Source of the DNA: Tubulanus polymorphus | Taxonomy: Eukaryota > Animalia > Nemertea | Assembly: GCF_964204645.1 (NCBI RefSeq) | Contig: NC_134026.1 | Span: 31,115,432 to 31,179,431 of the forward strand | Reading direction: 5' to 3' | DNA length: 64,000 nt | In this document: positions 20,800 through 26,354 of the stretch, one piece after another | Position numbering within the stretch: the stretch's first letter is position 1 | Layout: each line of letters opens with the position of its first letter | The notes under the pieces: model-generated | What the model saw: only the letters and a program-made list of their open reading frames with translations | The model's database searches: none | Told to the model about the DNA's origin: nothing | Program-made: the position numbers and the translations under genes

Positions 20800-22565
20800 T
20801 TATGCTAATATTTCAACCATTTGGTTAATGATACTGTCTAATCTATCGGCAGGAATAATCATAACGGTTCTGTACGAGTCGAATTCCTCGTCCTCATCGT
20901 CCCAGTCTCCTCCGACAGCGGTATCCTTCTCACTGTTCACGCAATACGAGAAATTAAATATCGCCTCCTGAAATAACAATGATGAACAAATTAAACTGAA
21001 TCTGAAGACTCTGGAAAAACCTCTCAAAAACATAAACAGGGAAGAGTGGAGATCTAGGAAGCTAAGAGTCTAAAGGAACAGTCGGGTTATTTTCCAGGTC
21101 ACATTCCTGTTCAGCGAAAGAAACATTTTGCATTTGGAATACAATAGATTCAATTTCAACGTGAATGAGTTTAGTCAAATTTGCAGGTTTCAACGACATT
21201 TATCTTGACAAAAAGGCAGGAAAGGTAAGGGGCTGGACCGCCTGACATTACCACCTAAATTTCGTCCTTGATTAAAGTAAAACCTGAATCTACCTGGAAA
21301 AAGAGTTCCTCCTCCGCGTTTTGGAAGATCAGTTCCAACGATTCATCTTTCTTTTTCATCTTCGATTTTGTGTCCTTTAAAACGTTCGTTTTACTGATCA
21401 TTAAAAAGTTCTTGAATTCGAATTTCATTTTCTTCTGATTCGCTTTCTCAATTTCCTTTCTACAAAATTAAGCGATCATTTTAACGATGACGATAAGACG
21501 TATTGAGGATATTTTCAGAAACTGAACGAAGATTTTCTACTAACTTTAACGCTTGAAACGAAGGTAAAGCTATTTGTGGCGGGATATTGATGAATCTTTC
21601 GTTGATTAAAAATCCTAAACATTGTCGCGAATCGCTGAAATAATTCTTAAACTGATCTCTTTTATTACAATCATTGCACCTTTCTGTTAACGTCGAGACC
21701 ATTTGTTTTACGAAATCAGCGTCCTGTAATGGAATAAATGAATTTGATAATTTACAATCAAAGAGCATCCGATTTACTTGGTTTCCGATTAGCAAATAAT
21801 CTCTACCTTTTTGACGGTAACATTGATTACAGAAATGACACCGAAAACTTCATTAGAATCGCTGATATCTTCATCATCTTCTTCTTCTGATAATTCACAT
21901 TGCTATAGAATATAAGTTCAGGTTTATTAAGCGTCTGCTCAAATCTCGTTTTAATGTTCACTTTACAATGATGATACAGACTTACTTTTATGATACTTCC
22001 GACATAATTTTGGGCGATTATCATATCTGACATTTCTGTCAGGTCAATATTGGCTTTGATAAACAGCTGAAAATAAAACAAAAAAGTTCAAATATAAATC
22101 ATTTATAAGCTTTTTAAATCTTTTAAGCCGTAAGGAATGTAAATAATTTAAGCCTTCAATAATTTTGATGGGAATTTTTAAAATGGTTTTCATTCAAAGA
22201 CTTTAATTTACCTGTTGTAATAGTCTACGGATGCCATGGAAATCACTGTCATCTGCTGTTCTCGCTTCAAAATCAATTTGAATCTCCTGCAAAAAAGTAG
22301 CACACGATGGATTCGAACCCAGTTGATAAAACGCCACTAGTTAACATATGAGACTAGGGTCGAATCCCATAAATATTCCATAACAACATGATTTAATATG
22401 GAATTTGGATCGATGGATTACCTTTTCCAACATTTCGTCATCACTGTTTTCACTTTCATCGTCATCCTCACTGTCATTTTCCTCCACATCTGGGTCGTTA
22501 GTCTCTTCATTTTCCAATTTTTTCATTTCATCCTCGACCGCTCGCTTTTTCCTGGGCGCAGCCAT
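20800..22565 (-). CDS. BCCIP: BRCA2 and CDKN1A-interacting protein (BCCIP); 7 coding exons
   Basis: Exons (- strand) 22422-22565 ('MAAPRKKRAVEDE..acidic..EMLEK'), 22212-22286 ('EIQIDFEARTADDSDFHGIRRLLQQ', matching human 'VNIEFEAYSLSDNDYDGIKKLLQQ'), 21986-22066 ('LFIKANIDLTEMSDMIIAQNYVGSIIK', matching 'LKAPVNTAELTDLLIQQNHIGSVIK'), 21807-21902, 21545-21723 ('..FLINERFINIPPQIALPSFQAL', matching 'LLLSERFINVPPQIALPMYQQL'), 21294-21459 ('..FQNAEEELFFQ', matching 'FANAEEEFFYE'), 20800-20967 ('EAIFNFSYCVNSE..YRTVMIIPADRLDSIINQMVEILA*'). It converges tail-to-tail with DDX56: the stops are ~205 bp apart. Confidence 0.92.
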
Positions 22566-23097
22566 CTTGTTTTTATAAATGTGGAATCTATTTCTGAAAC
22601 AATGGTTCCAAAGTTATCCGATATTTGTTATATTTTTCAATCAAATTTTACTAGAATTGTCGGTAATTAGTTTTTTTTAATTTTACTGTTCAATTTGATA
22701 AAAGACTTTCTCAAATCCTAACTGTGCACAGAAACGCGTGCTTCCTAGCACATCATCGTGCCAGCGTTATAGTTTTAGTTTTAATAGTAGAAAGGTCCCG
22801 AAATAGGTTATTTCTATTTTAAATGAATGAATTAGTTTTCCTATGGGGCCCATCAAATGTGGTAAGAAATATAAGATGGAAGAAATATTCTATACGCTAT
22901 CATGCCATGGCTTATGAGAGTGTCCGTAGTTTATTCTGGATTTATGTGTGGCCAAAACGAATGCACCCAGTAGTTTTTCAAATGCCACCTAGATGGCGGC
23001 AAAGTCTGGTCGAATATTTTTTCGGAATCGCTTGCGGTCAAACGCCGGGACGATTAGAAAATAATTGATAATTCACGAATTTCGTTCTCATTTTCAG

Positions 23098-26000
23098 GGG
23101 AAATCGATTCACTGTCATTCTTTATCGGGTTTGAGTTTATCATCGACGAAATGGTTCGCAGAAAATCCCGAATCAGGATTGCGTTCATTTATTATGCACG
23201 CAACATCACTAATCAAAGAGGTAAAAATGCATTTTTGTTGCCTTTTTAATGTTTTTCACTTTGTTTTGTTGAAACTTTAGAACTCTTTGATTTTAGAGTA
23301 AGAAAGTCATTATAGATGATGACACCACATTGAAAGTTCGTAAAGCATTTATTGACTTCATAAAGAAGAAGGTATTTAAGAGATTTTATGCCAATGATGA
23401 TAGTGAAAATTATGAAATCTGAAGTATATGTTGTCCATGATTTCAGTTGGATATAAGATGCAAGTTTTCGTGCATCAAATGCTTCCCAAAGTTCGGTACA
23501 GATCAACTATTATGGGCTAGAGAATTCAGGAGAGCCGAGATAGCAAACGAAAGCATTGAAAGAGTCCATATTACTATTGACGATGGCGTCTTAGACTCGT
23601 GGAAATATAACGATAGTCAATTACATTGTTTACCAGGTTAAACATACACATGATATTCAGAATCGTTTTGTAAAAAAAAATATTTCAATCCTTTTCAAAA
23701 TTCATCTGTTTGATATTTGTAGACTGTCCATCGAAAACCGAGGAAAACTTAGAGATTACAGAAATAAAGTTGCCTTTGATCTTTCATTCGTTTTATAAGG
23801 TCATCCATTCTCCTATTTGAATAACGAACTCATAGATCGTCATATGTCACGTACTAAGTATGTTTTGTTGTATGTTTACAGGCAGATAAACCATGTTTAT
23901 TAATTGAACGCGAATGTTTTATAAATACTGATGCTTCAAAACTTAAAAACATCATTTCTCATTGGTTGAATTTAAACCCTATAGGATGGATAGTAGTAAT
24001 TACTCCTTATTCACCAGGTATAGTATATATCTTGCACATTTTGAGATGAAATATAGTGGAAAATGTTATGCAGAATGAGTTTGTTTACGGTGCTATTTCA
24101 GGATCAAGTTTTCAATCACGTTTATCAAAACAGAATGAAGTTCTTAGACATTTTATCACGCAGGTAAATGAGGAAAGTGTTTGTCGATTCTTTCGATATT
24201 ATGAATTTTCAAATTGAATGAACGGTTGTTTTTTAAATACAGTTAGAAGTTCCGATTTATGAAGTGAGTTTAGATGAAGCAATCGGAAAGAGCTCATTTT
24301 TACAGCCTCCACAAAGTGGATTATTAGCATTCATTCATAGATTGTTCCTCATCAATTTACATCATAAGGTAATTAATAATTATCACACTATAGACTCCTT
24401 ACTAAATTCGGTGCATTTACTGAAAAGGTTCGCTTGTTAATTCACTACTGAACAAGGCAGGACCAATTGTATTTACAGTAGATATGTCCAGTAATTGTCA
24501 GTAATCATGATTTTCCTCTAATAGAGAATTGTTTATACTTCAGTACACGTTGCTTCTGTGTCAGTCTCCAAATCTCATCAAATGTGCAATAAATATTGGA
24601 ATGAAATACATGAAGGTAAAATAACGAAATGAAAATATTCCTGAACGTTCGAGAAAATTGCATTCACTCGATATTTTACCTGTTTCAGAATGAAAAAGTG
24701 TTAAAAGACCCTAAACTGGTATGTCTTGAAATAGAAAGCTCAATTTCAGTCACTGGATTCGAGAAATGGGTCATAGTTTTCACAATTAATGTTACAGATA
24801 GTGTGCAATCAGGCATTTAATAAACCTGCAATACCCGAGATGTTGTCAAGCATAGAAACTAAATGGATGTTGGATACAGAGCCAGATTTAACTATACCTC
24901 TACAACATCTAAACAGACGGCAAACTGAAAACAACTGGCTTCATATCCACCACGATGTTGGACACGGGATTTCTGTGCATCTATTCTGCAAAGATGAAAT
25001 GACGTTAGGAAGGTATGATGAAATTTCTCGTCAAGTTCAGATCACCAGCATTGAACACGAAATAAGATTTAGATTGAATATTTTTTCTGATCTGATGCAG
25101 ATTCACTGAGAAGCACATCGAAACGAGTACTCCAATACATGAATCAGGAAGTAGACTAGTACCAGACACAGCCGACCGAGTGGAGTTTCTCAACCCGACT
25201 TTTGATCAAGATGAAAGTATTCTAGAAACGACGACATCTGAACAACGTCCCCGTGAAAACAGATCAATAGAATCATCGAAACCTAAGACAGTTGTTTTAT
25301 CATCACCTAATAAACGTCAATTACCGGCTTGGATGAATACATCGCCTAAAAAACATAAATATGTCAAACGGTAAATATAGGTCCCACACCTGAAGAGTAA
25401 AACTTCAAGGTCTCTTTTTTCTTGCTGGTGACAAATGGCACGAGAAACTCCTTCAGAAGAAACAGAGGGAATTGTGGTTCCCTGATTTTTATGAATCCAG
25501 CACAGTCATGATTAGGTGCAATGAGGGTGGATTCTAAAATGCATGAATGTTACACAAGGTTTTGATGAATCTTTGATTCAATTGTTTTCATATGGATTTA
25601 TTTTTTTAGAGGAGTTATAACAACTAAATATATCCTGACTCCTGATGAACTTGTACAAGTTGCTAAACAAGTATTGGACCAGGTAAACACTGAATTAATG
25701 TTCAAATAATCAATGAATGTTTTTATTTTGATTTGTTGTTGATATTTGTTTTAGGAAAATAGTGATGAGGAAATGACGGAAATGCAGCAGCCTGTTACAG
25801 ATGCACCAGATCAGCAGCAGCCTGTTAAAGATGCAATGGATCAGCAGCTCCCTGTTACAGGTGCAATGGATCAACAGCTACCTGTTACAGGTGCAATGGA
25901 TCAGCAGCAGCCTGTTAAAGATGCAATGGATCAGCAGCTCCCTGTTACAGGTGCAATGGATCAGCAGCTACCTGTTACAGGTGCAATGGATCAGCAGCTA

Positions 26001-26354
26001 CCTGTTACAGGTGCAATGGATCAGCAGCTCCCTGTTACAGGTGCAATGGATCAGCAGCTACCTGTTACAGGTGCAATGGATCAGCAGCTACCTGTTACAG
26101 GTGCAATGGATCAGCAGCTACCTGTTAGAGGTGCAATGGATCAGCAGCTACCTGTTACAGGTGCAATGGATCAGCAGCTACATGTTACAGGTGCAATGGA
26201 TCAGCAGCTACCTGTTACAGATGCACCAGATCTAGCAAACAGCAGTAAACATAGACTTGAAGAAGATAAGACGGATCAAAACCAGAAACTGAATCCAATC
26301 TCGAATAATGTAAAGAAACAAACTGAAATCGATTTGTCATTTTTAGATTTTTGA
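23098..26354 (+). CDS. Uncharacterised conserved-looking protein with a C-terminal Ku-binding-motif-like peptide (..SPNKRQLPAWM..) and a terminal DQQLPVTGAM decapeptide repeat. Multi-exon; the N-terminal exon or exons are not resolved.
   Basis: Exons 23098-23220, 23447-23636, 23886-24017, 24102-24163, 24243-24368, 24544-24615, 24689-24718 (30-nt micro-exon), 24798-25012 (contains 'NNWLHIHHDVGHGISVHLF'), 25101-25370 (ends '..SSPNKRQLPAWMNTSPKKHKYVK'), 25610-25682, 25755-26354 (stop TGA). All junctions are GT-AG and keep one continuous frame. A candidate first exon is ~22905-23004 ('MAYESVRSLFWIYVW..'). It shares a ~250-530 bp divergent promoter with BCCIP. I recognise no confident named homolog. 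Confidence 0.6.
25790..26225 (+). repeat. In-frame coding 30-bp minisatellite (~14 units) encoding (D/Q)QQLPVTGAM
   Basis: Unit 'gatcagcagctacctgttacaggtgcaatg' with synonymous variants ctc/cta and point substitutions (T>K, P>H, T>R). The alternative-frame ORF 25801..26235 is an artefact. Confidence 0.9.

Follow-up and report, generated by a model that had tools for sequence, protein, structure and literature searches.

The window analysed here is a stretch of 64,000 nucleotides from the nemertean Tubulanus polymorphus (contig NC_134026.1), and our subject is a plus-strand gene within it whose product carries, close to a basic tail segment, a peptide resembling the Ku-binding motif (KBM) of DNA repair proteins. 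Taken together, our analyses make it very probable that this nemertean gene is orthologous to CYREN/MRI and represents a long form of it, widespread among animals other than vertebrates, in which the tail follows a body of about 410 residues.

The exon at 25101-25370 (plus strand), where the motif had been noticed, is open in one stop-free frame ending ...SSPNKRQLPAWMNTSPKKHKYVK and is bounded by an AG acceptor and a GT donor; its in-frame translation is RFTEKHIETSTPIHESGSRLVPDTADRVEFLNPTFDQDESILETTTSEQRPRENRSIESSKPKTVVLSSPNKRQLPAWMNTSPKKHKYVK(R), and the same stop-free reading is also given as ...KTVVLSSPNKRQLPAWMNTSPKKHKYVK. The original prediction had placed 11 or more exons between 23098 and 26354. 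This chain stands as far as it was given, since 13 exons within that interval could be linked through GT-AG sites into a single frame, but it was incomplete, the first exon lying at 21165-21224. With this exon added, the gene consists of 14 GT-AG exons (21165-26354, plus strand) in one open frame, and the spliced product agrees at every residue with the NCBI model LOC141899192 (Tubulanus polymorphus, uncharacterized protein, 702 amino acids), so that the flagged exon is part of the RefSeq gene model. An open reading frame beginning MAAKSGRIFF... at 22993 was considered as a start upstream of 23098 and rejected, as it offers no in-frame splice and the true exon 1 is the one at 21165-21224. The features on which the following argument relies are these:

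Exon 1: 21165-21224, plus strand; residues 1-20 (MSLVKFAGFNDIYLDKKAGK), matching the N-terminus of LOC141899192 exactly and followed by a GT donor; it holds the first beta-strand (E11-15 in the structural model) and the start of a degenerate P-loop.
Domain 1, predicted kinase-like P-loop domain: 21192-23784, plus strand, introns included; residues ~10-170, exons 1-5.
Domain 2, predicted HAD-like domain: 23788-25170, plus strand, introns included; residues ~172-412, exons 5-12.
HHDVGHG string: 24948-24968, plus strand; part of the beta-hairpin 358-381 of domain 2, not a conserved motif.
Exon 12: 25101-25370, plus strand; residues 389-479 in the exon-to-residue map, it starts in the interior of the last body helix (384-397), crosses a disordered linker and takes in the Ku-binding motif together with the basic residues that flank it.
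Ku-binding motif core K460-R-Q-L-P-A-W-M467: 25312-25335, plus strand; then the basic flank NTSPKKHKYVKR, which reaches 25370 and takes in the first base of exon 13.
Exon 13: 25610-25682, plus strand; residues 479-503 (RGVITTKYILTPDELVQVAKQVLDQ), the putative counterpart of the multimerization domain (MuD) of CYREN/MRI, a short strand then a helix.
30-bp tandem repeat: 25784-26225, plus strand; 14.7 copies encoding the decapeptide MDQQLPVTGA in a disordered spacer.
C-terminal motif EIDLSFLDF then the stop codon: 26325-26354, plus strand; a shortened form of the family C-terminal motif.

Conservation of the Ku-binding motif

A-type Ku-binding motifs are present in the unrelated proteins APLF, WRN and MRI, and their published minimal core is R-x-x-P-x-W (Grundy et al. 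2016, PMC4831024), which R461-Q-L-P464-A-W466 of the Tubulanus protein (core KRQLPAWM) fits. Among the 128,000 residues of the window's six-frame translation the strict pattern [KR][KR].LP.W[MF] has a single match, the flagged peptide itself, and its expected frequency is about 0.5 per proteome of 10^7 residues; for the minimal core R..P.W the expectation rises to about 360 in a proteome of the same size. The motif match alone is not above chance for a genome-wide scan and therefore conservation had to decide.

When 1.84 billion representative proteins were searched exhaustively with phmmer, 40 relatives emerged, and for 30 of these the E value is <=1e-10. Many of the relatives align from residue ~21 to residue ~511 and thereby cover both the motif and the helix downstream of it. 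All those bearing a name are called "uncharacterized" or "hypothetical", and they come from another nemertean, gastropods, bivalves, annelids, a brachiopod, a sea star, a sea urchin, a hemichordate, amphioxus and a coral. Word-indexed database searches recovered nothing but the query, both from the single Tubulanus protein and from the full family alignment, the latter search being swamped by low-complexity words.

At the motif, 33-34 homologs cover the site. In the family alignment the arginine corresponding to R461 is kept in 23/34, an aliphatic residue at position 463 ([LIV]) in 33/34 and P464 in 32/34, while W466 is kept in 31/33, M467 in 28/33 (with Leu in 4) and a basic residue at position 470 in 24/31; proline and tryptophan were already invariant (21/21) in the first alignment. 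The P, W and M columns carry 3.6-3.9 bits against 0.7-1.4 bits in the flanking linker, and the motif is a sharp conserved island within an otherwise unalignable disordered linker. The family consensus reads R-x-[LI]-P-x-W-M-x-x-[KR]. In the consensus first put forward, [RK]-[RK]-x-L-P-x-W-[MF], the first basic position corresponds to K460, which shows no conservation among the homologs.

In an AlphaFold2 model computed with the 40-sequence family alignment, residues 414-461 and 470-484 (pLDDT below 50) and the region beyond 511 are disordered, a confident helix spans 490-511, and a small bump in confidence coincides with the motif, whose flank NTSPKKHKYVKR is basic. The proposal of a Ku-binding-type motif in a basic, disordered context is consequently supported, by conservation of its core across phyla and by a segment predicted to be disordered and accessible; nor does the protein fall into a non-repair family with the motif buried in a structured region, since the orthology points to a repair protein and the region is predicted to be disordered. 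Both the hydrophobic residue before the proline (L463) and the methionine after the tryptophan (M467) are present in Tubulanus. Methionine at this position, found in most species where human has leucine, confers a more than 30-fold tighter affinity for the Ku80 von Willebrand A (vWA) domain, and the Tubulanus protein shares it with the human MRI/APLF Met forms that show this >30-fold higher affinity (10.64898/2026.07.22.740027). By analogy, the Tubulanus motif peptide (SSPNKRQLPAWMNTSPKK) would be expected to bind Ku, of which the Ku80 gene lies outside the window.

Similarity of the tail to CYREN/MRI

The invertebrate tails resemble CYREN/MRI well beyond this motif. Human MRI1 comprises an A-type KBM at residues 9-17, a MuD at residues 49-81 (strand 53-57, helix 58-81) that is required for stimulating NHEJ (non-homologous end joining), and at the C-terminus an XLF-like motif, the X-KBM (10.64898/2026.07.22.740027). 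Likewise, two further conserved blocks lie downstream of the motif in nearly all members of the long-form family. The first, T-V-Y-x-M-[TS]-E-x-E-L-x-x-x-A-x-x-[IV]-L-K-Q, lies 5-40 residues after the motif and aligns with mammalian TVYCMNEAE[LI]VDVALGILIE, human region 49-81; in the family alignment its threonine is kept in 25/33 members, the tyrosine in 28/33, the methionine in 26/33, the glutamate in 29/33, the leucine in 28/33 and the alanine in 31/33. In Tubulanus the counterpart is TTKYILTPDELVQVAKQVLDQ, a strand plus a helix (T484-K-Y-I-L-T-P-D-E-L...A497...L501), with a block-mean pLDDT of about 93 for helix 490-511. The second block, a basic patch then D-[LF]-S-[FI]-L-D-[DE]-I-F-(S), occupies the extreme C-terminus and is a candidate counterpart of the X-KBM: 21 long-form proteins end in a D[LF]S[FI]LD[DE]IF(S)-type motif, and 117 of the 120 mammalian CYRENs listed end in an ...EIFFS-type motif. 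The tail would therefore hold, judged from its sequence, the three modules of human MRI1 in the same order, namely an A-type KBM, a strand-plus-helix MuD and an acidic-hydrophobic C-terminal motif.

Many long forms (P0004, P0005, P0006, P0010, P0013 and others) also possess an internal second copy of the terminal motif (...LLDDIF..., ...LLDEIFF...). This copy is followed by a basic SP[KR]KK patch (alignment A1, columns ~880-930), an arrangement that points to duplication of the element within the tail; Tubulanus has no internal LDDIF copy.

For the comparison with mammals, a database query with the human sequence returned 295 proteins. Among the 120 matches listed all are mammalian, 95-214 amino acids long (mostly ~150-160) and all carry PF15325; those named are CYREN or "modulator of retrovirus infection", some being "hypothetical protein" or nameless, and human isoform 2, which is among them, is 100% identical to the query over the shared part. 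A profile of 29 invertebrate tails aligned by hhalign to a profile of 105 mammalian CYRENs gave a probability of 96.7%, a P value of 3.8e-10 and a score of 72.5 over 67 columns, the match spanning KBM and MuD collinearly with the flagged motif aligned to the mammalian KBM, whereas the reversed profile scored 14.9 and 20 column shuffles scored at most 13.5. With a hidden Markov model (HMM) built from mammalian CYREN, 35 long-form proteins outscore every one of 1,134 decoys, which were reversed or shuffled sequences; the top one (30.8 bits, E 2.5e-8) is that of amphioxus, which of the animals in the set is most closely related to vertebrates. In BLASTP the amphioxus protein matches bushbaby CYREN with an E value of 2e-6 over 78 residues, and a second, collinear high-scoring segment pair, weak at E 0.43, joins the two C-termini.

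Gene structure points in the same direction. MRI1 and MRI2 share their first 46 residues (10.64898/2026.07.22.740027) and human isoform 2 diverges at the same point, residue 46, which implies an exon junction at R46, 8 residues before Y54. In Tubulanus the intron preceding the MuD exon interrupts a codon for Arg that stands 7 residues ahead of the Tyr equivalent to Y54, and the human and Tubulanus introns 5' of the MuD thus correspond in near-equivalent positions. The suggestion that the gene might encode an invertebrate NHEJ accessory factor is hence supported and can be sharpened to CYREN/MRI, given that the homology of the tail extends beyond the motif in hhalign, HMM and BLASTP comparisons.

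Several observations weigh against the assignment to CYREN/MRI. The Tubulanus protein alone scores 5.4 bits (E 1.6) with the mammalian CYREN HMM, which is the decoy level, and therefore its assignment is transitive through the family. Pfam PF15325 (MRI) gives no hit for Tubulanus at E<=1 and none at E<=0.01 in 21 family members. The MuD counterpart is divergent in Tubulanus (TKYILTPDEL vs TVYCMNEAEL), and its terminus, ...DLSFLDF, is shortened and without the [DE]-I of ...LD[DE]IF. The alignments of the terminal motif between the long form and CYREN (...YVREIFFS) are collinear but weak, with an hhalign P value of 0.099 and the BLASTP E value given above. Finally, the coral relative P0033 (Acropora cervicornis, 717 amino acids) has no recognisable P-x-W motif. 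This same protein keeps the body, a MuD-like helix (TLYCLSPEELLQTAKEIV) and a terminal ...ILDHFI, and it contains an inserted Cys/His-rich stretch, its UniRef name being "SWIM-type domain-containing"; its deviation may be a gene-model problem or a real cnidarian difference.

It could be argued from these points that a PNKP-derived protein gained a Ku-binding short linear motif independently and is analogous, not orthologous, to CYREN. Short linear motifs do evolve convergently, as the A-type KBMs of the unrelated APLF, WRN and MRI illustrate; PF15325 finds nothing in the family, Tubulanus stays among the decoys of the CYREN HMM, and mammalian CYREN has no folded body. We nevertheless regard convergence as unlikely. 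A KBM, a linker of similar length and a 25-residue MuD align collinearly with clean controls, the pairwise match of amphioxus with a mammal covers 78 residues, the long form and CYREN each have a candidate third module at the extreme C-terminus, and the intron 5' of the MuD is near-equivalent in position. Moreover, among the long forms it is that of the chordate that scores highest, in keeping with descent.

The folded body and its relation to PNKP

The body of the protein goes back to two folds that also make up PNKP, an enzyme that processes DNA ends. In the AlphaFold2 model residues ~25-410 are confidently folded, with block-mean pLDDT values mostly of 85-97, and domain 2 modelled alone (residues 168-415) reaches a pLDDT of 90.4 and a predicted template modelling score (pTM) of 0.90. 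Reading by eye, the original prediction had recognised no FHA/PBZ or helicase signature in the remainder of the protein; the model divides the body into a polynucleotide-kinase-like P-loop fold (domain 1) and a HAD-phosphatase fold of the PNKP/GmhB/HisB-N type (domain 2). Each of the two domains shows PNKP-like structural similarity, and no solved PDB chain matches both at once. For domain 1, mammalian PNKP fills the top eight places of a Foldseek search of the PDB, ahead of bacterial and fungal polynucleotide kinases; in a search of PDB sequences with the family profile the PNKP kinase region also comes first (E ~0.006), the single Tubulanus protein finding nothing in such a search. The only NCBIfam hit is TIGR01663 (bifunctional polynucleotide phosphatase/kinase), whose match is confined to the kinase segment, occurs in 5 of 6 homologs with at best 32 bits against an equivalog cutoff of 502.8 bits, and is absent for Tubulanus. 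The domain 2 profile retrieved noise only from the PDB sequences, with no sequence-level likeness to any solved HAD protein, and no FHA domain appeared in a Pfam scan of Tubulanus and 21 family members.

The catalytic positions tell of decay. HAD enzymes carry motif I (DxDx[TV]) where their first core strand ends; at this place in domain 2 the family has Q/E-W-E and Tubulanus E-R-E. With the nucleophile position set from HAD topology and not from residue-level superposition, the nucleophile column holds Gln in 27, Glu in 8 and Asp in 1 of 36 members, then Trp in 29 and Glu in 28. Because the Asp nucleophile is replaced by Q/E across the family, domain 2 is predicted to be a pseudo-phosphatase, dead family-wide. 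In domain 1 the Walker A motif (general form [AG]xxxxGK[ST]), GPPxxGK[ST] in the family and intact in about two thirds of the members, reads KKAGKGKS in Tubulanus, where Lys takes the place of the first Gly/Ala and the prolines are lost; Tubulanus keeps the "IIDDD" motif, and close to the position of the PNKP catalytic Asp, at a site that is acidic in many members, it carries Lys. Both body domains thus look catalytically dead in Tubulanus. The P-loop is intact in Lineus, Patiria, Diadema, Branchiostoma, Glandiceps, Lingula, Owenia, Dimorphilus, Haliotis and Sinanodonta, and degenerate in Tubulanus and in many gastropods and bivalves (alignment A2, Tubulanus residues 16-23 and 38). This distribution suggests that nucleotide binding was lost repeatedly, lineage by lineage.

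The string HHDVGHG had been read as a signature of HD-type phosphohydrolases. HD-domain phosphohydrolases have H...HD...D metal-binding residues and an all-helical fold. In the family only the final Gly of the string is conserved (26/34), the string forms a beta-hairpin in the alpha/beta HAD fold, and there is no Pfam HD hit, so that this identification was abandoned.

The body could also be taken for that of a working enzyme, a functional PNKP paralog acting as a polynucleotide 5'-kinase and/or 3'-phosphatase tethered to Ku. Its domain 1 has PNKP and other polynucleotide or RNA kinases as closest relatives in fold and sequence, some two thirds of the members keep an intact GPPxxGK[ST] together with the DD motif, and many have an acidic residue beside the catalytic Asp position of PNKP. 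Against this stand the loss of phosphatase chemistry family-wide (Q/E as the HAD nucleophile in 35/36, Asp in 1), the absence of a sequence-level HAD signal, the TIGR01663 scores far under the cutoff and without Tubulanus, and the Tubulanus P-loop itself, devoid of its first Gly and prolines and with Lys at the acidic position. For Tubulanus we therefore hold an active enzyme to be very improbable; it is less improbable for the lineages whose Walker A is intact.

As for a coincidental motif in a low-complexity tail, or two neighbouring genes wrongly fused, such an artefact is scarcely credible: the expected frequencies of both patterns and the low-complexity tail with its recent tandem repeat would favour it, but the motif stands out as a conserved island from a variable linker in six phyla or more, the same body-plus-tail layout recurs in more than 30 independently annotated species, and the last part of the folded body and the motif are both encoded by one exon, exon 12, which excludes an annotation fusion of body and tail.

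Probable place among end-joining factors, and genomic surroundings

Of the known systems, CYREN/MRI (human Q9BWK5, PF15325), an adaptor of NHEJ that also regulates the cell cycle, is the closest to the Tubulanus protein. Both have an A-type KBM of the form R-x-[LV]-P-x-W-[ML], a basic linker, a MuD (TVYxM.E.EL...A..IL) preceded by an intron just 5' of it, a disordered acidic or Ser-rich spacer and, as a candidate third module, a hydrophobic-acidic terminal motif (...EIF(F)S, shortened in Tubulanus), in the same order. The two differ in everything that comes before: mammalian CYREN, at ~150-160 amino acids, is disordered except for the MuD and has its KBM at the N-terminus, whereas the Tubulanus protein of 702 amino acids places a ~410-residue body ahead of the KBM (460-467) and a 14-copy decapeptide repeat in the spacer. 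With residues ~25-410 folded, it is not a small (~157 amino acids), fully disordered microprotein with an N-terminal KBM.

PNKP, in mammals a bifunctional polynucleotide kinase and 3'-phosphatase (TIGR01663; PDB 3zvl, 3u7e, 1yj5), is among the best structural matches of both body folds, and the known or predicted place of action of the two proteins is the DNA double-strand break. In contrast to PNKP, the Tubulanus protein has no FHA domain, its order is kinase then HAD instead of HAD then kinase, the DxDGT nucleophile is changed to Q/E-W-E in the whole family, the Walker A of Tubulanus is degenerate, and recruitment would be through the Ku-binding motif, not through an FHA domain that binds phospho-XRCC4/XRCC1. 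Phage T4 Pnk, too, has its kinase ahead of its HAD domain. APLF and WRN share with the Tubulanus protein the core R-x-x-P-x-W followed by Met or Leu in a basic disordered context, with Met as in APLF (RKRILPTWM). The Tubulanus protein has neither the FHA and PBZ domains of APLF nor the exonuclease and helicase domains of WRN, and the similarity does not go beyond the motif; unlike CYREN, these proteins offer no collinear second or third module.

By analogy with these systems, one may sketch how the long form would operate. Its KBM would dock on the Ku80 vWA domain, Trp466 entering a hydrophobic pocket and Met467 strengthening the contact, while self-association of the MuD helix would bring several Ku-bound molecules together with their DNA ends. 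The C-terminal motif might provide a second contact with Ku or with other factors of NHEJ or the DNA-damage response (DDR), and the pseudo-enzyme body, instead of catalysing a reaction, could be a module that binds a DNA end, a nucleotide or a phospho-ligand.

The gene had been thought undescribed, which is true only in part. A 2023 preprint lists oyster K1RRV0 and sea-urchin A0A7M7HMK7 as CYREN orthologs in its Table S1, along with entries for frog, chicken and zebrafish, and says in one sentence that a sea-urchin PNKP-like protein is fused to a CYREN-like Ku-binding motif; it calls CYREN "the least conserved protein" (10.1101/2023.05.26.542399). The architecture of these two proteins, as the preprint describes it, is that seen in Diadema, Patiria, the bivalves and Tubulanus. 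Of these features the preprint mentions the KBM; it is silent on the MuD and the C-terminal motif, on the inactive HAD site, on the variation of the Walker A and on how widely the family occurs (10.1101/2023.05.26.542399), and our literature search found no description of the long-form MuD and C-terminal motif, the dead HAD site, the variable P-loop or the phyletic breadth. The architecture has therefore been noticed once before, which limits the novelty of our finding, and the kind of gene to which that of Tubulanus belongs is known, though hardly described so far.

The current literature describes CYREN/MRI as a protein of vertebrates or mammals, a disordered microprotein of 157 residues (PMC13276856) and the least conserved NHEJ factor. 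A CYREN-like three-module tail recurring across invertebrate phyla, joined to a well-folded PNKP-like pseudo-enzyme, offers a testable evolutionary origin for CYREN; its conservation over more than 500 million years supports the proposed MuD and the high-affinity Trp-Met form of the motif, and it gives a name to some 40 "uncharacterized" invertebrate proteins in genome annotation. It also raises the question of what the lost body did at Ku-bound ends. It is tempting to go further, though we offer this tentatively and consider it possible rather than probable: mammalian CYREN/MRI might be the surviving tail of a protein of ~700 residues that goes back at least to the bilaterian ancestor and that coupled a PNKP-derived end-sensing module (its phosphatase dead, its kinase perhaps active in some lineages) to Ku through a KBM, a multimerization helix and an XLF-like C-terminus, the body having been lost in mammals or vertebrates. 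Invertebrates with an intact P-loop could then possess a Ku-tethered polynucleotide kinase that replaces or complements the FHA-mediated recruitment of PNKP.

Two features of the locus remain to be mentioned. The 30-bp repeat at 25784-26225 comprises 14.7 copies with 93% matches (Tandem Repeats Finder); it is young and sits between the multimerization helix and the C-terminal motif. The MDQQLPVTGA repeat is lineage-specific, being absent from the homologs, which have at this place the internal "LLDDIF" copy and an SPKKK-type basic patch. A Pfam DUF3203 hit (E 6e-7) lies entirely on the repeat and is spurious, and the idea that the repeat (QQLPVTGAM) derives from the KBM (RQLPAWM) was dropped, the shared QLP being too little.

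On the minus strand the neighbouring gene is BCCIP, whose identity is confirmed by Pfam PF13862 at 21481-21795, 21827-22081 and 22203-22337. The open-reading-frame pieces at 22341-22565 and 20800-21033 are putative further BCCIP exons, and BCCIP appears to run downwards from 22565 on the minus strand. Exon 1 of the CYREN-like gene (21165-21224, plus strand), with minus-strand BCCIP exon pieces on both sides of it, therefore appears to lie within a BCCIP intron, and intron 1 of the CYREN-like gene, for its part, contains the first BCCIP exons. A divergent promoter shared with BCCIP had been proposed for this locus: BCCIP was correctly named, but the two genes appear to overlap head-to-head instead of simply diverging from a common promoter.

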